64,000 nucleotides of DNA, taken from positions 7,896-71,895 of the forward strand of contig URTF01000001.1 in NCBI GenBank assembly GCA_900550695.1, written 5' to 3'. This document shows positions 1 to 48,376 of this stretch, piece by piece. Under the pieces are notes generated by a model. That model made no database searches. It saw only the letters and a program-made list of their open reading frames with translations, and was not told the DNA's origin. A program made the translations under genes and the position numbers. This stretch comes from an uncultured Ruminococcus sp. Its GTDB lineage: Bacteria; Bacillota; Clostridia; Oscillospirales; Ruminococcaceae. The number at the start of each line of letters is the position of its first letter. Position 1 is the stretch's first letter.

Positions 1-1
1 G

Positions 2-1204
2 GAAACTCTCAACAGCATGACACCTATCTGGCGCAAGAACAAGAACGAACTCACCGATGAGGACTACAACAAGTTCTACAAGGAAAAATACTACGATTAC
101 AGCGATCCGCTCTGCCATATCCACGTCAAGACAGAGGGTACTGCGACCTATGATGCGCTCCTTTACGTTCCTGCAAATACCCCTATGGATTTCTACACGA
201 AGAACTTCAAAAAGGGACTTCAGCTCTATTCGAGCGGTGTTCTCATCATGGACAAGTGCGAGGACCTTATCCCCGACCATTTCTGCTTCGTTAGAGGTCT
301 TGTCGATTCGCAGGATCTTTCGCTCAACATCTCCCGTGAAATGCTCCAGCACGACAGACAGCTCAAACTTATCGCAAAGTCGCTTGAAAAGACAATCAAG
401 AACGAATTGAAGAAGATGCTTACCAACGAGCGTGAGAAGTATGAACAGCTCTGGAAGAACTTCGGTATGCAGATAAAGTTCGGCGTTTACAACGGTTACG
501 GCGCAAACAAAGACCTGCTCAAAGACCTCCTTATGTTCTATTCTTCAAACGAGAAAAAGCTTGTAACGCTTGATGAATACACTCAGAGAATGAAGGAAGA
601 CCAGAAGTATATCTACTATGCCGCAGGCGAAACTGTAGACAAGGTAGATGCTCTCCCTCAGACCGAGGTTGTTAAGGACAAGGGTTACGAAATTCTTTAT
701 CTTACAGAAAGCGTTGACGAGTTCGCACTCAAGGTTCTTGAACAGTATAACGACAAGCCGTTCAAGTCTGTTTCGGACGCAGACCTCGACCTTGATACTC
801 CCGAGGAAAAGGAAGAATTCAAGAAGCTTTCCGAAGAGAGCAAGGATATGCTTGACGAGATAGCAAAGGCTCTCGACGGCAAGGTAAACTCCGCTAAGCT
901 TTCCGAAAGACTTAAATCCCACCCTGTCTGCATCACGAACGAGGGTGAAATTTCGCTCGAAATGGAAAAGACCTTTGCCGCAATGCCGACCGACCAGAAC
1001 GTAAAGGCTCAGAAGGTTCTCGAGATCAACCCTAACCACCCGATCTTCGGCGTTCTCAAAGACCTCTACTCAAACAACAAGGAAAAGCTTGCCGACTACA
1101 GCAAGATACTCTACACCGAAGCACTTCTTATCGAGGGTATGCCGATAGAAGACCCGCTCGCATTCTCGAACCTTGTTTGCTCGCTTATGGTGGAGAAAAA
1201 ATAA
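2..1204 (+). CDS. htpG: Molecular chaperone HtpG (Hsp90), C-terminal ~400 aa; 5' end lies outside the window
   Basis: The frame is open from the window edge. The translation (IWRKNKNELTDEDYNKFYKE, LLYVP, DLSLNISREMLQ) fits the middle and C-terminal domains of bacterial Hsp90. Confidence 0.9.
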   Translation, partial: ETLNSMTPIWRKNKNELTDEDYNKFYKEKYYDYSDPLCHIHVKTEGTATYDALLYVPANTPMDFYTKNFKKGLQLYSSGVLIMDKCEDLIPDHFCFVRGLVDSQDLSLNISREMLQHDRQLKLIAKSLEKTIKNELKKMLTNEREKYEQLWKNFGMQIKFGVYNGYGANKDLLKDLLMFYSSNEKKLVTLDEYTQRMKEDQKYIYYAAGETVDKVDALPQTEVVKDKGYEILYLTESVDEFALKVLEQYNDKPFKSVSDADLDLDTPEEKEEFKKLSEESKDMLDEIAKALDGKVNSAKLSERLKSHPVCITNEGEISLEMEKTFAAMPTDQNVKAQKVLEINPNHPIFGVLKDLYSNNKEKLADYSKILYTEALLIEGMPIEDPLAFSNLVCSLMVEKK

Positions 1205-1221
1205 ATGCGTAATGCGTAATT
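1202..1221 (+). repeat. TAATGCG-type heptamer array starting at the htpG stop codon (TAAATGCGTAATGCGTAATT)
   Basis: Read directly. Same motif and same sense orientation as at five other gene ends in this window. Confidence 0.7.
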
Positions 1222-1286
1222 ATTATACGATAAATATACAGCAATTGGGTGAGTTTTGTATTCACTCAATTGCTTGCAGAAAATGC

Positions 1287-1315
1287 TTGACATATCTGTC
1301 AAAAAGGTATATAAT
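1287..1315 (+). promoter_or_regulatory. Consensus sigma-A promoter (TTGACA-17 nt-TATAAT) for putative antitoxin sRNA, copy 1
   Basis: TTGACA at 1287-1292 and TATAAT at 1310-1315, with an exact 17-nt spacer. Confidence 0.6.
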
Positions 1316-1321
1316 ATAAAC

Positions 1322-1411
1322 ATAAAGAGGGCATACCGATAGACGGTCGCTCCCGTGATTAAGTTAAAGAATAACCGTCACATTTAGAGCGTGGGGCGGT
1401 TATTTCTTTTT
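1322..1411 (+). ncRNA. Candidate ~90-nt antisense (antitoxin-like) sRNA, copy 1
   Basis: Runs from the consensus promoter to an intrinsic terminator (stem about 1370-1405, then T-run to 1411). Its 3' end overlaps the stop codon and 3' end of the minus-strand peptide ORF. It has no credible ORF of its own. Confidence 0.45.
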
Positions 1412-1486
1412 GTTATTGCTGTTCTGCACTAATTGTATTACAGCGCAAATAAGTAGTCCCAAGGTAAGTACCTCCATGACACCCAT
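1400..1486 (-). CDS. 28-aa hydrophobic peptide with lysine tail (MGVMEVLTLGLLICAVIQLVQNSNNKKK); candidate type I toxin
   Basis: ATG at 1486 lies 7 nt downstream of SD AAAGGGGG, and the TAA stop is at 1400-1402. Predicted single TM helix plus a KKK tail. It has its own consensus promoter, and a diverged paralogue lies 340 bp downstream. The ORF is below the ORF-track size cutoff. Confidence 0.5.
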   Translation of the reverse strand: MGVMEVLTLGLLICAVIQLVQNSNNKKK

Positions 1487-1551
1487 AGCAACGCCCCCTT
1501 TCAGGGAGCTAAAGATTGACCGCCTACCGTTCTGGTATGCCCATAGGTGAT

Positions 1552-1580
1552 ATTATAGCATCTATGTTGGATTTTGTCAA
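1552..1580 (-). promoter_or_regulatory. Consensus sigma-A promoter (TTGACA-17-TATAAT on minus strand) for the peptide mRNA
   Basis: Minus-strand TTGACA at 1580-1575 and TATAAT at 1557-1552, with a 17-nt spacer. It converges on the plus-strand promoter at 1287. Confidence 0.6.
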
Positions 1581-1625
1581 TATTTGCTATTTAATACACC
1601 TGTTTAGCGTATCATTTGGAATTGC

Positions 1626-1654
1626 TTGACATATTATTAAAATAAGTATATAAT
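1626..1654 (+). promoter_or_regulatory. Consensus sigma-A promoter for putative antitoxin sRNA, copy 2
   Basis: TTGACA at 1626-1631 and TATAAT at 1649-1654, with a 17-nt spacer. The flanks are homologous to copy 1. Confidence 0.55.
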
Positions 1655-1660
1655 AAAAAT

Positions 1661-1750
1661 ATAGAGAGCATACCGATAGACAGGTGCTCCCTATTAATGT
1701 GTTTAAAGAATAATCGTTAAGTTGGTAGCTTGGGGCAGTTATTTCTTTTT
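1661..1750 (+). ncRNA. Candidate antisense sRNA, copy 2
   Basis: Homologous to 1322-1411 (gagcataccgatagacaggtgctccc core). Ends in a weaker hairpin plus T-run at 1741-1750. Confidence 0.35.
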
Positions 1751-1837
1751 ATTGTTGCAATCAAACATTATCTGAATCATTATCCGGATAATATTGCAGA
1801 TAAATAATCCCAAAGTTAAAACTTCTGTGATACTCAA
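1739..1837 (-). pseudogene. Diverged paralogue of the 28-aa peptide ORF (..SITEVLTLGLFICNIIRIMIQIMFDCNNKKK); no ATG, SD or promoter seen
   Basis: The frame was chosen by paralogy (EVLTLGL-x-IC and NNKKK-stop shared with copy 1). Only TTG codons are available as starts, and an intrinsic terminator sits immediately upstream. Confidence 0.3.
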
Positions 1838-1850
1838 TAAAAGAAAATGC

Positions 1851-1897
1851 AAAAACAACGGCGAGGTCGCAAAAACGTGACCTCGCCGTTGTTTTTT
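1851..1897. terminator. Bidirectional intrinsic terminator
   Basis: 13-bp perfect stem caacggcgaggtc/gacctcgccgttg, flanked by an A-run and a T-run. Confidence 0.7.
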
Positions 1898-1925
1898 GCA
1901 AAGCGGCAGAACTTACTGCATTTTC

Positions 1926-1954
1926 TTGACAAAATCCATCGTTCAGTGTATAAT
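1926..1954 (+). promoter_or_regulatory. Sigma-A promoter (TTGACA-17-TATAAT) upstream of the TSUP gene
   Basis: TTGACA at 1926-1931 and TATAAT at 1949-1954. The first 13 nt (TTGACAAAATCCA) are identical to the minus-strand toxin promoter of copy 1, but here in the opposite orientation. Confidence 0.6.
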
Positions 1955-1968
1955 AATGCTGAAAAAGT

Positions 1969-2781
1969 GTGCAAAGAGGTAAATATATAGAAAAGGAAGT
2001 TTTTGTCATTCTTTACAAATTCATCATCTGCTTTATCGCAGGCATCGGTGCAGGTCTCGGAACGGGATTCGCAGGAATGAGTGCTGCTGCCGTTATCACG
2101 CCTATGCTCGTTGCTTTTCTCGGAATGGATCCTTATATGGCGGTCGGCATCGCCCTTGCCTCGGACGTGCTTGCAAGTGCAGTTTCCGCTTACACCTACG
2201 GCAAAAACAAGAACCTCGACATTCGCAACGGTCTTATCATGATGGTCACGGTGCTTGTGTTCACTATGGTCGGCAGTTATGTTTCGAGCCTTGTACCGAG
2301 CGGCACTATGGGCAATTTCTCACTGATAATGACGACATTCCTCGGCGTAAAATTCCTTGTGAAGCCTGTCATGACGACAAAGGAAAAAATGGCGCAGACC
2401 GACCCGAAAAAGCGTGTTGTCCAGTCGATCGTATGCGGAATGCTCATCGGCTTTATCTGCGGATTTGTCGGCGCAGGCGGAGGAATGATGATGCTCCTGA
2501 TACTCACCTCCGTGCTTGGGTATGAGCTTAAAACTGCAGTCGGAACGAGCGTATTTATTATGGCCTTCACGGCTTTGACGGGTTCTTTGAGCCACTTTGC
2601 ACTCGGCGGCGCACCCGATATATGGGCGCTCGTATTCTGCATTTTAAGCACGCTTTTATGGGCAAGGATAGCCGCCGTTTTCGCAAACAAGGCAGAGCCT
2701 AAGACGCTCAACCGTGCGGTCGGCATTGTGCTTATCGTGCTTGGCATCGGCATTTTTGCTTTTAAATTGATAACAGGTTAA
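1969..2781 (+). CDS. TauE/SafE (TSUP, DUF81) family anion exporter-like membrane protein; start uncertain
   Basis: Polytopic hydrophobic protein with duplicated G-rich TM motifs (GIGAGLGTGFAG and GFVGAGGGMMM). The GTG at 1969 lies only about 8 nt from the predicted TSS, so the true start is probably a non-ATG codon about 30-40 nt downstream. Confidence 0.75.
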   Translation: MQRGKYIEKEVFVILYKFIICFIAGIGAGLGTGFAGMSAAAVITPMLVAFLGMDPYMAVGIALASDVLASAVSAYTYGKNKNLDIRNGLIMMVTVLVFTMVGSYVSSLVPSGTMGNFSLIMTTFLGVKFLVKPVMTTKEKMAQTDPKKRVVQSIVCGMLIGFICGFVGAGGGMMMLLILTSVLGYELKTAVGTSVFIMAFTALTGSLSHFALGGAPDIWALVFCILSTLLWARIAAVFANKAEPKTLNRAVGIVLIVLGIGIFAFKLITG

Positions 2782-17524: not shown

Positions 17525-17543
17525 TAATGCATAATGCGTAATT
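17525..17543 (+). repeat. Heptamer motif TAATGCATAATGCGTAATT, 4 nt after the glgA stop
   Basis: Read directly. Sense orientation relative to glgA. Confidence 0.65.
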
Positions 17544-22988: not shown

Positions 22989-23021
22989 AATTACGCATTA
23001 CGAATTACGAATTACGCATTA
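22989..23021 (-). repeat. Heptamer array TAATGCGTAATTCGTAATTCGTAATGCGTAATT beginning with the helicase TAA stop codon
   Basis: Read directly on the minus strand. The stop codon is the first TAA of the array. Confidence 0.75.
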
Positions 23022-27900: not shown

Positions 27901-29463
27901 TTACTTAGCGTATTCAACTACGCGGCTTTCACGAATGATATTAACTTTGATCTGTCCGGGGTAGTCCATTTCGTCCTCGATACGCTTGGCAATATCTCTT
28001 GCAACAATGACCATCTTTTCATCGTTGATCTTGTCGGGATAAACCATGATGCGGACTTCACGGCCTGCCTGGATAGCGAAGGATTTTTCAACACCCTCAT
28101 AGGAGCAGCAGATCTCTTCGAGCTTTTCAAGACGCTTGATGTAGTTCTCGTAGTTCTCGCTTCTTGCGCCCGGTCTTGCCGCTGAAATAGCATCGGCAGC
28201 CTGAACGAGAGCAGCGACAACGGAGTGTATCTCAACATCGCCGTGGTGAGCCTCGACTGCGTGAATGACCTCAGGGCTTTCCTTGTACTTGCGGCAGACA
28301 TCAACGCCGATCTGGACGTGTGAACCCTCGATCTCGTAGCTGAGAGCCTTACCGATATCGTGGAGAAGTCCTGCTCTTCGTGCGAGGTTTGCGTCAACGC
28401 CAAGCTCGGAAGCCATAATTCCTGCGAGATGTGCGACCTCGATAGAATGGTTGAGTACGTTCTGGCGGTAGGAGGTTCTGTAATGAAGTCGTCCGAGGAG
28501 GCGTACAAGCTCGTGATTAAGACCGTGTACGTTGGTTTCGAGAACGGCTCTGTCACCCTCCTGCTTCATGATATGCTCGACTTCACGGCGAGCCTTGTCG
28601 ACCATTTCTTCGATACGGGACGGGTGGATCCTACCGTCTGCGATAAGCTTTTCAAGTGCGATACGGGCAACCTCACGGCGAGCCTGATCGAAGCAGGAAA
28701 GCGTGATAGCTTCGGGTGTATCGTCGATGATAAGGTCAACGCCCGTGAGCGTTTCGAGTGCCTTTATGTTTCTGCCCTCACGTCCGATGATCCTGCCCTT
28801 CATTTCGTCATTCGGCAGAGGAACAACGGAAACTGCAGATTCGGATACCTGATCTGCGGAGCATTTTGAAATTGCAAGGGAAATAAGATTTCTTGCCTTT
28901 TCCTCACATTCGTCCCTGAGCTGCTGCTCATAAGACTGTATCTTGAGAGCCTTTTCATGTACAAGCTCATTTTCGAGCATTGAAAGCAGGTGTTCCTTAG
29001 CCTGATCCATAGTGAACTGTGAGATCTTTTCGAGGGTTTCCATCTGCTGCTTTTTGATATTGTCGGCTTCTTCAAGCTTTTCGTCAGCCTGCTTGATCTT
29101 TTTCTGGAGTATTTCGTCCTTTTTATCAAGGCTGTCGTTCTTTTTGTCGAGATTGTCTTCCTTCTGCTGGATCCTGCGCTCCTGACGGGAAATTTCTCCG
29201 CGGCGCTCTTTGAGTTCCTTATCAAGCTCGGAACGGCTCTTCTGGATCTCCTCCTTTGCATCGAGAAGTGCGATCTTTTTTTGATTTTCTGCTTCTGTCT
29301 TTGCTGCTTCGACAAGTCTTTCGGCTTCCTTTTCCGCCGAACCTATCGCTGCCTCGGCCTGCTTTTTGCGGTGGTTTATACCTGCGGCGAAGAATATCGC
29401 TCCACCGACAGCGAAGCCTGCAATAAGCGCAATGACAGCCGCAATGATAGCTGCTGTGTTCAA
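27901..29463 (-). CDS. rny: Ribonuclease Y
   Basis: N-terminal TM, long K/E coiled coil, KH domain ([11 protein letters not shown]) and HD domain (LLHDIGKA). TTG start with SD GGGGAGG. Confidence 0.92.
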
Positions 29464-29691: not shown

Positions 29692-29720
29692 TTGACAATT
29701 TTCACTACATAACGTATAAT
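29692..29720 (+). promoter_or_regulatory. Orphan perfect sigma-A promoter (TTGACA-17-TATAAT) with no obvious downstream gene
   Basis: Hexamers at 29692-29697 and 29715-29720. The next 350 nt on the plus strand lack a credible RBS-preceded ORF. Confidence 0.5.
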
Positions 29721-48199: not shown

Positions 48200-48316
48200 T
48201 TTTTAATGCGTAATGCGTAATGCGTAATGCGTAATTAATGCAATGCAGAGCATTGCATACAAATTAAGAATTGTAAAAAAATGCGTTCACAATTTTTTTC
48301 GTGAACGCATTTTTTA
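48200..48316 (+). ncRNA. Candidate ~115-nt sRNA made of four TAATGCG units, a 9-bp hairpin and an intrinsic terminator
   Basis: Extended -10 promoter TGtTATAAT at 48185-48193. Array at 48204-48235, hairpin at 48238-48258, and terminator stem atgcgttcac/gtgaacgcat (48281-48310) plus T-run. No ORF. Confidence 0.35.
48204..48235 (+). repeat. (TAATGCG)x4 + TAAT heptamer array
   Basis: Perfect 4-unit tandem repeat. It is the only array in the window not preceded by a same-strand gene. Confidence 0.8.
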
Positions 48317-48338
48317 ATATTCTAACGAAACAGCGAAG

Positions 48339-48376
48339 CTAATTACGCATTACGCATTACGAATTACGCATTATCA
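48339..48376 (-). repeat. Heptamer array TGATAATGCGTAATTCGTAATGCGTAATGCGTAATTAG starting at the pncB stop
   Basis: Read directly on the minus strand. It forms an inverted repeat with 48204-48235. Confidence 0.75.

Follow-up and report, generated by a model that had tools for sequence, protein, structure and literature searches.

A probable type I toxin–antitoxin-like module of an apparently undescribed family in gut relatives of Ruminococcus

What is encoded in the 764-bp gap behind htpG in the genome of an uncultured Ruminococcus sp.? The window, the whole stretch of 64,000 nucleotides of contig URTF01000001.1 that was analysed, contains in this gap one intact and one decayed peptide gene, each with a convergent antisense RNA gene. 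Judged from the DNA sequence, the gap probably holds a type I toxin–antitoxin (TA)-like module of a previously undescribed family, with a complete unit at 1287–1580 and a truncated unit at 1626–1837. Such a TA-like character was suggested in the initial annotation and gained support from a family of related RNA genes, coding selection on the peptide, sequestration of the SD and additional loci located via the toxin leader.

The whole 64 kb contain six perfect TTGACA-17-TATAAT sites, and four of them lie within one 670-bp stretch: 1287–1315 (+), 1580–1552 (−), 1626–1654 (+) and 1926–1954 (+). Perfect promoters at 29692 and 24889 were considered as family members and rejected as unrelated. The sites at 1287–1315 (+) and 1580–1552 (−) face each other, as described in the initial annotation. 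The plus-strand promoter (1287–1315, 12/12) belongs to a candidate antitoxin RNA of ~90 nt at 1322–1411 (+), sRNA 1, which was defined by its fold, by alignment A1 and by a score of 90.3 bits with the family RNA model R1. The transcription start and the 3′ end were deduced solely from promoter and terminator. The layout of sRNA 1 comprises a 5′ stem-loop (1327–1354) with CGCUCCC (1348–1354) as its 3′ arm, an A/U-rich linker, a terminator hairpin (1370–1404) and a U-tract (1403–1411).

The opposing promoter (1552–1580, minus strand, 12/12 with a TG extension) precedes a toxin mRNA leader at 1487–1545 (−), delimited by the MFE fold and a leader alignment by eye, and a candidate toxin ORF of 28 aa at 1400–1486 (−). 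This ORF had been overlooked by the ORF track; it reads MGVMEVLTLGLLICAVIQLVQNSNNKKK. The hydrophobic single-helix character and the KKK tail ascribed to the peptide agree with a maximum 15-aa Kyte-Doolittle hydropathy of 2.69 and a C-terminal KKK. The leader has a 5′ block, GGGCAUACC...GGUAGGCGGUCAAU, an anti-SD GCUCCCU (1509–1503), a GAA loop and the SD AGGGGGC (1499–1493). The GGGGG core of the SD is located 7 nt from the ATG. The MFE fold contains the 7-bp hairpin, GCUCCCU-GAA-AGGGGGC (1509–1493, minus strand), that was proposed to lock the SD. Across the family, sequestration of the SD by an upstream CUCCC-type partner was predicted in 93 of 96 leaders, compared with 46% after shuffling.

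The convergent transcripts meet in a bidirectional terminator. The hairpin that both promoters were thought to share has arms at 1370–1382 and 1392–1404 and forms the terminator in the folded plus-strand RNA; a simple terminator scan, limited to loops of 8 nt, had passed over this hairpin with its 9-nt loop. Cofolding defined an overlap zone of ~47 nt on both strands (1365–1411), which takes in the toxin stop codon and the last four sense codons (N-K-K-K). The U-tract of the sRNA, read on the other strand, is AAAAAGAAATAA, which codes for KKK-stop. The plus-strand RNA had been described as free of ORFs and overlapping the stop codon and 3′ end of the toxin gene, and indeed no ORF of at least 20 aa was found in sRNA 1. 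Because the palindromic terminator is common to both genes, there is a stretch of ~47 nt in which each RNA is perfectly complementary to the other. Cofolding of both RNAs, suggested along with the initial annotation, predicted a 47-bp intermolecular duplex that is more stable than the separate monomers by a ddG of about −53 kcal/mol.

The peptide frame is a coding frame under purifying selection, as judged by its substitution pattern. Synonymous-biased substitution in homologous loci had been named as a test of the ORF: 18 distinct ORFs of subfamily A have a pN/pS of 0.27, and their variable sites are distributed over codon positions 1, 2 and 3 as 15, 4 and 19, with position 2 variable at 4 of 21 sites. 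Two alleles of the window locus retained EVLTLG with changes at third positions. For the sRNA, 90% of cells contain the proposed pairs, compared with 28–50% in slid controls. On the sRNA alignment, the manual structure is pairing-compatible and showed no compensatory covariation in the helices, and RNAalifold recovered the terminator base only. The sequences vary too little for covariation to show, and the search pattern had itself fixed the terminator's 3′ arm.

Unit 2 (1626–1837) repeats unit 1 in direct orientation, with ~80% identity and an offset of 337–339 bp. The family RNA model detected no third copy of the module in the 64-kb window; its weak match at 48226–48320 (20.4 bits) was rejected as an unrelated terminator. 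The promoter scan placed the sRNA 2 promoter at 1626–1654 (+, 12/12). It is followed by sRNA 2 at 1661–1750 (+; 75.9 bits with model R1, fold z-score only −0.64), an antitoxin-type RNA that is either orphaned or partly decayed. The remnant toxin frame on the minus strand (1739–1837), (TTG)SITEVLTLGLFICNIIRIMIQIMFDCNNKKK, has no SD, leader or promoter. The initial annotation had recognised the retained sRNA promoter and the diverged frame lacking ATG, SD and promoter; this holds, with the qualification that a TTG (1837–1835) at the position of the relatives' ATG is a possible weak start. An intact relative in L139 has ATG, SD and leader: MSIIEVLTLGLLICNIIQIMIQIMFDCNNKKK. Allele B of the window locus kept the ATG; SD and leader are likewise missing. 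The place of the unit 2 toxin leader and promoter is taken by a perfect 18-bp bidirectional terminator hairpin (1851–1896, both strands, 100% complementary, followed by T-runs on both strands), which shields the module from the TauE promoter (1926–1954). That promoter had been noted for sharing its first 13 nt with the toxin promoter, in opposite orientation and at the place where the unit 2 toxin promoter should be, and for driving the TSUP (TauE) gene. It is probably no flipped toxin promoter, and this reading was rejected, because species without the module have an orthologous TauE promoter, which reads TTGACAAAAAAC... there and TTGACAAAATCC... here. Its likeness to the toxin promoter is, by sequence comparison, probably coincidental.

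Homologous loci were sought in related genomes. Pattern scans listed at least about 119 related RNA genes, nearly all in Ruminococcaceae and Oscillospiraceae gut genomes and on predicted viral contigs; the genome scan contributed at least 117 stretches, almost all from Ruminococcaceae and Oscillospiraceae, and viral-contig scans added more. The family is abundant in Ruminococcus callidus, for instance in a cluster at 552–576 kb of NZ_CP186925.1 (ATCC 27760), in R. bromii and in numerous uncultured Oscillospirales from the guts of humans and ruminants. Among the 119 sRNA genes listed, the promoter matches 12/12 in 99 and 11/12 in 16, at a fixed distance to the RNA, and 90 face an SD-preceded ORF of 20–50 aa (76 with ATG, 14 with GTG). 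Of 86 toxin promoters listed, 26 match 12/12 and 30 match 11/12. The partners are asymmetric: 29 of the 119 listed sRNA genes have no toxin, and 2 of 64 toxin units have no sRNA. Tandem arrays with a spacing of 322–514 bp occur in 16 of 97 listed loci. Up to seven units are located in one 8-kb block, and four such blocks of R. callidus together contain at least 19 copies of the sRNA. The peptides have 21–45 aa and fall into at least six divergent types with the common pattern (Y)-x-T-x-x-[DE]-L...TM...KKK. The terminator-based scan imposed the KKK tail; the leader-based scan relaxed it in viral contigs only. Loci located via the toxin leader alone have the same arrangement of ORF, terminator and sRNA, with KRK, KKR or KKK as tail. 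There is apparently a large, undescribed family of TA-like modules with many copies in gut Ruminococcus relatives. Multicopy or tandem arrays, an occluded SD, perfect antitoxin promoters and orphan antitoxins are hallmarks of type I TA systems (Ibs/Sib, Ldr/Rdl, AapA/IsoA, TxpA/BsrG; also T1TAdb paper).

Ten contigs of related species with an identical YbaK protein have no module upstream of TauE; the site is therefore not conserved across species. Blastn of the 764-bp gap had no match among plasmids and one among phages, an unverified 'Bacteriophage sp.' contig that carries a genuine family member within bacterial-looking flanks. This contig was the only match among isolated phage or plasmid records. 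In tblastn, two family peptides matched no phage or plasmid, possibly due to low-complexity masking.

Databases provided little guidance. Rfam 15 at gathering thresholds recognised just a tRNA in the whole window. At E ≤ 10, the best match within 1100–2100 was STnc240 with 30.6 bits against a threshold of 55 bits, which is terminator-like; the remaining matches are chance or terminator-like. None of the known antitoxin and toxin-locus Rfam families (RatA, SR4/BsrG, Sib, Sok, RNAII and others) reached its gathering threshold, with BsrG (RF01412) scoring 13 bits on the sRNA against a gathering score of 55. The family peptides had no match above threshold in Pfam, NCBIfam and PHROGs, and Fst_toxin (PF13955) matched none of them. 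A profile search with family peptides retrieved only unannotated D-type peptides, in agreement with the initial view of a peptide outside any named family. A description of the family was found neither in Rfam, Pfam and NCBIfam nor in the literature searched, and the T1TAdb text searched does not mention Clostridia or Ruminococcus. The sole lead is a borderline sequence resemblance to Hol_Tox (PF16935), the domain of TxpA, BsrG and BsrE. The window peptide obtained 13.4 bits (E 0.072), below the cut-off of 23.3 bits; 12 of 52 family members matched weakly at E ≤ 1, the best with E 2.8e-4. The controls BsrG, TxpA and BsrE scored 34.5, 31.3 and 47.9 bits. With hhalign, A3 aligned to BsrG/TxpA/BsrE over 29 columns from the N-terminus (probability 55.8%, E 1.1e-4), with a template of only three sequences, which were validated against Pfam.

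The architecture has parallels in known systems. TxpA/RatA, BsrG/SR4 and BsrE/SR5 of B. subtilis are convergent with 3′ ends that overlap into the end of the ORF (T1TAdb paper), as in the family here. The B. subtilis Hol_Tox toxins and the family peptides are small single-TM peptides; BsrG also ends in KKK. In the hhalign alignment (probability 56%), their N-terminal Y-x9-G registers coincide. Prophage association is frequent in the B. subtilis systems, and some family copies are located on predicted viral contigs. In contrast to these systems, the family sRNA carries a leader-like copy in the same sense, the overlap of ~47 nt is shorter than the 75–120 nt of RatA/SR4, and the hosts are Oscillospirales instead of Bacilli. 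Fst/RNA II (par, pAD1) resembles the family in convergent transcription to a shared bidirectional terminator, in a 5′ structure that hides the RBS and in a hydrophobic peptide of ~30 aa. The par locus has direct repeats, DRa/DRb, and complementary 5′ ends, whereas the family has an inverted repeat and same-sense 5′ ends; neither the Fst_toxin domain nor complementary 5′ ends via direct repeats were found. The par overlap excludes the ORF (T1TAdb paper), whereas the family overlap includes the ORF end. According to the account of Sayed et al. (2012) given in the T1TAdb paper and in PMC6563280, the 3′ ends of SprA1 and SprA1AS of S. aureus overlap, yet the non-overlapping 5′ domain of the antitoxin blocks the toxin RBS in trans. 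Like SprA1AS, the family sRNA bears an anti-SD (CGCUCCC) in its 5′ domain, with a predicted SD pairing of −15 kcal/mol. Unlike there, this anti-SD is a paralogue of the cis anti-SD of the mRNA, and the predicted trans pairing is not cognate-specific; a sequence relationship between the systems is lacking. Type I TA systems of Clostridia are essentially known from C. difficile only (review PMC6563280). Its modules (CD2517.1-RCd8 and others) have convergent overlapping RNAs, multiple copies per genome and prophage association, and toxins of 30–56 aa whose N-terminus is hydrophobic and whose C-terminus is rich in lysine (PMC6563280). Clostridial hosts, convergence, multiple copies, prophage association and the general toxin layout are shared with the family, a likeness drawn from descriptions; the C-terminal tails of the family (3–4 K/R) are much shorter. 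For comparison with C. difficile phages, tblastn of family peptides was run against the phage collection, which presumably includes them, and gave no match. More generally, a small hydrophobic ORF with translation signals and conserved coding, as in type I systems, is present (28 aa, pN/pS 0.27, 90 listed SD-preceded ORFs that are homologous or analogous), and so is, at the sequence level, a separate complementary RNA (12/12 promoter, terminator, 47-nt perfect overlap).

The inverted repeat noted between 1329–1354 and 1504–1542 was recovered: 25 of 26 positions of the former match the reverse complement of the latter, with three gaps. Since the repeat is inverted, the 5′ domain of the sRNA runs in the same sense as the toxin leader, and the two are unable to pair. 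The 5′ domain is a shortened same-sense copy of the leader with the same anti-SD motif, not its complement. Family-wide, the same-sense similarity is 10.7 compared with 5.7 in shuffles; the reverse-complement score of the two 5′ ends is 5.8 against a shuffled background of 5.7. The anticipated pairing of the sRNA CGCUCCC with the toxin SD is predicted with −15.0 kcal/mol for the window pair. Cognate pairs of the family have −16.1 kcal/mol compared with −11.2 for shuffled sRNA segments. The pairing is not specific for the cognate, as non-cognate pairs reach −15.4 kcal/mol, and it comprises just ~4 bp by hand in the MYITLSDL subtype. The anti-SD of the sRNA is itself predicted to be sequestered in the sRNA's own stem-loop.

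For the probable TA-like module, the following mechanism may apply. The strong promoter would yield a minus-strand mRNA of ~180 nt, with the SD of the leader hidden by the upstream CUCCC anti-SD. Translation would produce the KKK-tailed hydrophobic peptide of 28 aa and one helix, which may damage the membrane once made. From the perfect convergent promoter, a non-coding RNA of ~90 nt would accumulate and silence the peptide. The 3′ duplex may serve as a substrate of RNase III, as for RatA/txpA and SR4/bsrG, and the sRNA CGCUCCC may base-pair with the SD in trans, in the manner of the SprA1AS 5′ domain. Cognate specificity would then reside in the variable terminator loop and inner stem (1378–1396) and generic repression in the conserved anti-SD domain. 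Stabilisation of an island or prophage, or phage defence, are candidate roles. More tentatively, the antitoxin RNA may have been born by inverted duplication of the transcribed toxin leader and may act as a 'leader mimic': it would deliver the cis anti-SD in trans, use the shared palindromic terminator as a cognate docking site via kissing of loop and inner stem, and, with conserved inverted flanks (GCUCCC ... GGGAGC), allow paralogues to swap the linker–terminator–ORF cassette by recombination. A swap of this central cassette (linker, terminator, ORF) is seen between two alleles of the window locus.

A regulated gene for a small membrane protein, without addiction or defence, is an unlikely alternative reading of the same arrangement. 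The peptide would then be regulatory or accessory, holin/antiholin-like, or a phage peptide for superinfection exclusion, kept under antisense control. YhzE-2, a predicted type I toxin of B. subtilis, was non-toxic on overexpression (Fozo 2010, PMC2887945), and toxicity of the present peptide is a prediction only. Three family members weakly match the PHROGs holin family phrog_3488 (E 0.027), and some copies are located on predicted viral contigs. High copy numbers and tandem arrays, as in the four 8-kb R. callidus blocks with at least 19 sRNA copies, argue against a non-toxic peptide, as do the perfect antitoxin promoters, the nearly universal SD occlusion, and orphan sRNAs that are common while orphan toxins are rare. 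Less probable still, the unit would be intergenic repeat DNA, such as a MITE-like repeat or a cassette of promoter and terminator, with an ORF that is incidental to hairpin and U-tract; we give this reading hardly any weight. The family is multi-copy and tandem, varies in presence and absence (species with identical YbaK lack the module upstream of TauE), and its terminator U-tract forces KKK-stop. A mere repeat is opposed by the pN/pS of 0.27 with a second-position conservation typical of hydrophobic coding, by SD and start codon retained in 90 of 119 listed units, and by a frame that persists across peptide types almost without nucleotide identity; terminal repeats or target-site duplications were not seen.

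A fold-back as in hok was also envisaged, in which the leader pairs with the mRNA's own 3′ region, either a read-through extension, as proposed in the initial annotation, or the AAUAACCGCC terminator arm, and the plus-strand RNA is secondary. Its structural premise stands: the inverted repeat is real and family-wide (10.7 compared with 5.7 shuffled), so a read-through 3′ end would be complementary to the leader. The leader block GGUAGGCGGUCAAU is strongly conserved, and the MFE fold of the full mRNA pairs leader GGCGGU with 3′ ACCGCC in place of the terminator hairpin. The required read-through of a terminator with a conserved stem and UUAUUUCUUU tract keeps the fold-back speculative. It leaves unexplained the better-conserved and almost invariably perfect promoter of the sRNA gene and the persistence of orphan sRNAs, and C-type leaders (GGACGGUUU) have no perfect match to the terminator arm when compared by hand. 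As the main mode of control, it is improbable, between the two preceding alternatives in likelihood. Fold-back control is compatible with type I TA and does not exclude it.

The family has been invisible to annotation because its peptides have 21–45 aa and no Pfam or NCBIfam model. A covariance model and a peptide profile are now ready for annotating gut Oscillospirales genomes, and the modules are a source of compact strong promoters, leaders and terminators for gut anaerobes that are hard to manipulate. They are a natural system for the question of how one small antisense RNA splits cognate specificity and generic repression. If the antitoxin is indeed a leader mimic, type I antitoxins could originate in a novel way and act through two sites, and would do so in dominant commensals of the human gut. 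Provided that the peptides are toxic, the modules may influence how stably keystone gut species keep prophages or islands, or how they defend themselves against phages.

Between the htpG stop codon (1204) and TauE/TSUP lies an organised gap of 764 bp, and the module in it is a real feature. The initial annotation was correct in essentials; its promoters, ORF, hairpins and repeat were all recovered. A motif scan located six perfect TTGACA-17-TATAAT promoters in the entire 64-kb window, four of them in the gap (1287-1315(+), 1580-1552(-), 1626-1654(+) and 1926-1954(+)). The remaining two perfect sigma-70 consensus promoters, 29692-29720(+) and 24889-24860(-), are unrelated to the module. The former is ~230 bp past the start of a 520-aa ORF (27901..29463(-)), which we take from its sequence to be RNase Y-like, and is followed by a short AT-rich stretch without family features. 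In unit 1 (1287-1580), an antisense sRNA gene faces the hydrophobic-peptide ORF described before, the candidate toxin MGVMEVLTLGLLICAVIQLVQNSNNKKK (1486..1400(-)). The plus-strand RNA is predicted to start at 1322; its fold has a stem-loop at the 5' end, then a linker and a terminator hairpin, after which comes UUUCUUUUU. The fold of the minus-strand mRNA contains the proposed locking hairpin, GCUCCCU-GAA-AGGGGGC, with the Shine-Dalgarno sequence (SD) inside. The suspected imperfect inverted repeat, 1329-1354 with 1504-1542, matches at 25/26 positions with three gaps. Unit 2 (1626-1837), the second unit of the initial annotation, repeats unit 1 in direct orientation with ~80% identity at an offset of 337-339 bp. 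Rfam has no family for either strand of the gap.

Tandem heptamer repeats (AATGCGT)n occupy five intergenic sites of the window (1204-1220, 17526-17542, 22990-23020, 48205-48235 and 48342-48372; 0.02 expected by chance). One site is directly 3' of the htpG stop, and one pair in inverted orientation flanks a terminator at ~48270-48310. The repeats may be a species-specific REP-like element.

Synonymous-biased substitution in homologous ORFs, named beforehand as a test of the peptide, was found: the 18 distinct subfamily-A ORFs have variable first, second and third codon positions in 15/4/19 of 21 cases and a pooled pN/pS of 0.27. By its substitution pattern, the toxin-frame peptide is coding sequence. 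At least six peptide types (MGVLEVLTLG..., MYITLSDL..., MEHYVTWSEL..., MMDQYITFGDLL..., MMMDVVSF... and MTFTYEAF...) have in common the N-terminal pattern (Y)-[IV]-T-x-x-[DE]-L-x-Q-x-G, a single hydrophobic helix and a basic tail. The sRNA terminator U-tract, in reverse complement, reads as the KKK-stop codons AAAAAGAAATAA, so that tail and terminator constrain each other.

The proposed search for relatives yielded many convergent ORF/sRNA loci by pattern, leader-motif and covariance-model scans. The pattern scan found at least 117 stretches in genomes and ~10 true members among 19 loci in viral contigs. A leader-motif scan of viral contigs, independent of terminator and KKK tail, recovered the arrangement of ORF, terminator and sRNA again, with KRK, KKR or KKK tails. 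The matches listed include 119 family-like sRNA genes. Their promoter is perfect (12/12) in 99 and 11/12 in 16; 90 lie opposite an SD-preceded ORF of 20-50 aa (76 ATG, 14 GTG), and 29 are orphan or degenerate like unit 2. Among the matches listed, the toxin promoter reaches 12/12 or 11/12 in 56/86 cases, and 16/97 loci contain tandem arrays with a spacing of 322-514 bp. A covariance model built from 46 members found exactly two copies in the window (90.3 and 75.9 bits); in R. callidus ATCC 27760, it detected 4, 5, 7 and 3, respectively, in four blocks of 8 kb. Three adjacent blocks (NZ_CP186925.1 552,001-576,000; L040, L107 and L098) form a hot-spot with 4, 3 and 7 sRNA copies and a mixture of several peptide types; another block (L075, 32,001-40,000) has 5.

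Hosts of the matches listed are almost all Ruminococcus, Ruminiclostridium, Oscillospiraceae, Acutalibacteraceae and unclassified Clostridia from human and ruminant guts. Intact family peptides in MAGs or bins labelled Akkermansia (L106) and Sodaliphilus (L109) look like bin contamination. Matches in records with the labels Methylobacter (L058), Deltaproteobacteria (L118) and Parabacteroides (L138, an isolate strain) have no family ORF and look like chance. The sRNA region also matched an unverified 'Bacteriophage sp.' record (L017, MT835489.1 15951-22058), with the layout of the window around a different peptide, MYITLSDLTQIGIFLTAFTVMIFTIISFNKKK. This unannotated contig is the sole matching 'phage' record; judged by eye, the ORFs beside its module look bacterial, one like an AraC/GyrI regulator and the other like a MiaB radical-SAM enzyme.

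Within the species, contigs of strains encoding an identical TauE protein carry two alleles of the intergenic region. L012 and L015 share the allele of the window. In allele B (L011, L013, L014 and L016), flanks, both promoters, sRNA 5' stem-loop and toxin leader are near-identical to the window, and heavy divergence extends from just past GCUCCC up to the ATG, covering linker, terminator and ORF (window 1355-1486 versus L011:3445-3545). This cassette replacement within near-identical flanks suggests that paralogous modules exchange cassettes, or undergo gene conversion, via the conserved inverted flanks. The unit 1 ORF of allele B reads MSIIEVLTLGILICDIIQIALNSKKK, with EVLTLG kept via third-position changes; in its unit 2 frame, the start codon is ATG (MSIMEVLTLGLLICDIIQIMQNSNNKKK) versus TTG in the window. 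Unit 2 has no SD, leader or promoter in either allele; a perfect bidirectional terminator (1851-1896) stands there instead. Because related species with an identical YbaK protein have no module upstream of TauE, the module is, by synteny, an accessory insertion. Synteny with window 1-2000 breaks upstream of TauE in ten loci with identical 157-aa YbaK (L001-L010), where htpG (as in the window), a PUA/SAM-methyltransferase gene or an Rce1-like protease gene precedes a spacer of 600-870 bp.

The initial annotation linked the TSUP promoter to the toxin promoter by a 13-nt identity. This relationship was rejected: module-free species have an orthologous promoter, TTGACAAAAAAC..., and chance is the best explanation of the identity. 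Where TauE/TSUP starts is ambiguous. The GTG at 1969 chosen by gene callers has no SD and is only ~8 nt away from the predicted TSS; a good SD, AAGGAAG (1993-1999), precedes an in-frame ATT at 2008 by 8 nt, and near this ATT there is no in-frame ATG, GTG or TTG.

MFE folds pair the SD core with a CUCCC-type partner upstream of it in 93/96 distinct leaders versus 46% after shuffling of the upstream part; the hairpin loop ranges between a tetraloop and an inserted hairpin. In the sRNA helices, 90% of cells are pairing-compatible versus 28-50% in slid controls. Since these helices have no compensatory covariation and one terminator arm was fixed by the search pattern, they are treated as conserved sequence with plausible structure. 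Local alignment of the sRNA 5' domain with the toxin leader, both read in one sense, gave scores of 10.7 (cognate), 8.4 (non-cognate) and 5.7 (shuffled); the reverse complement was at background (5.8). Hence, the two cannot pair together; in the folding models, pairing with the SD region is open to each. For duplexes between the sRNA anti-SD segment and the translation-initiation region, energies were -16.1 kcal/mol (cognate), -15.4 (non-cognate) and -11.2 (shuffled sRNA segments), and -15.0 kcal/mol for the window pair. Cofolding of both RNAs, likewise proposed beforehand, predicted a 47-bp 3' duplex. For the suggested hok-like fold-back, the inverted repeat stands, but the fold-back requires transcription past the terminator. 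The window MFE offers another 5'-3' contact, between leader GGCGGU and terminator arm ACCGCC, which lacks support in some subtypes.

Every match of a profile search in 5.8 billion proteins was an unnamed or 'hypothetical' peptide with no Pfam domain, in line with the earlier statement that the peptide belongs to no named family. The only recurrent weak match was Hol_Tox (PF16935), which contains BsrG, TxpA and BsrE (12/52 members, best E 2.8e-4). The window peptide scored below the Pfam cut-off, and hhalign against BsrG/TxpA/BsrE gave 56% probability in the N-terminal register; it was therefore not filed in Hol_Tox. No description of the family turned up in literature searches covering type I TA in Ruminococcus, T1TAdb, Hol-Tox, the Clostridia review and Fozo 2010.

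As read from the DNA, the predicted genes converge on a shared palindromic terminator and overlap at their 3' ends, including the stop codon; the peptide is coding and the antitoxin promoters are strong. The modelled folds occlude the SD in cis and give the sRNA a trans-capable anti-SD. Orphan antitoxins are many and orphan toxins few among the matches listed. The peptide would be membrane-toxic. The sRNA would repress it through the 3' duplex and RNase III-type decay, as in RatA/txpA and SR4/bsrG, and may additionally block the SD in trans, as SprA1AS does. Specificity would come from the variable terminator loop. The family would belong to a known kind, type I TA with 3'-overlapping antisense RNA; its putative antitoxin is unusual in architecture, being a same-sense copy of the leader. 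The module represents a putative new, widespread family of such type I TA-like systems.
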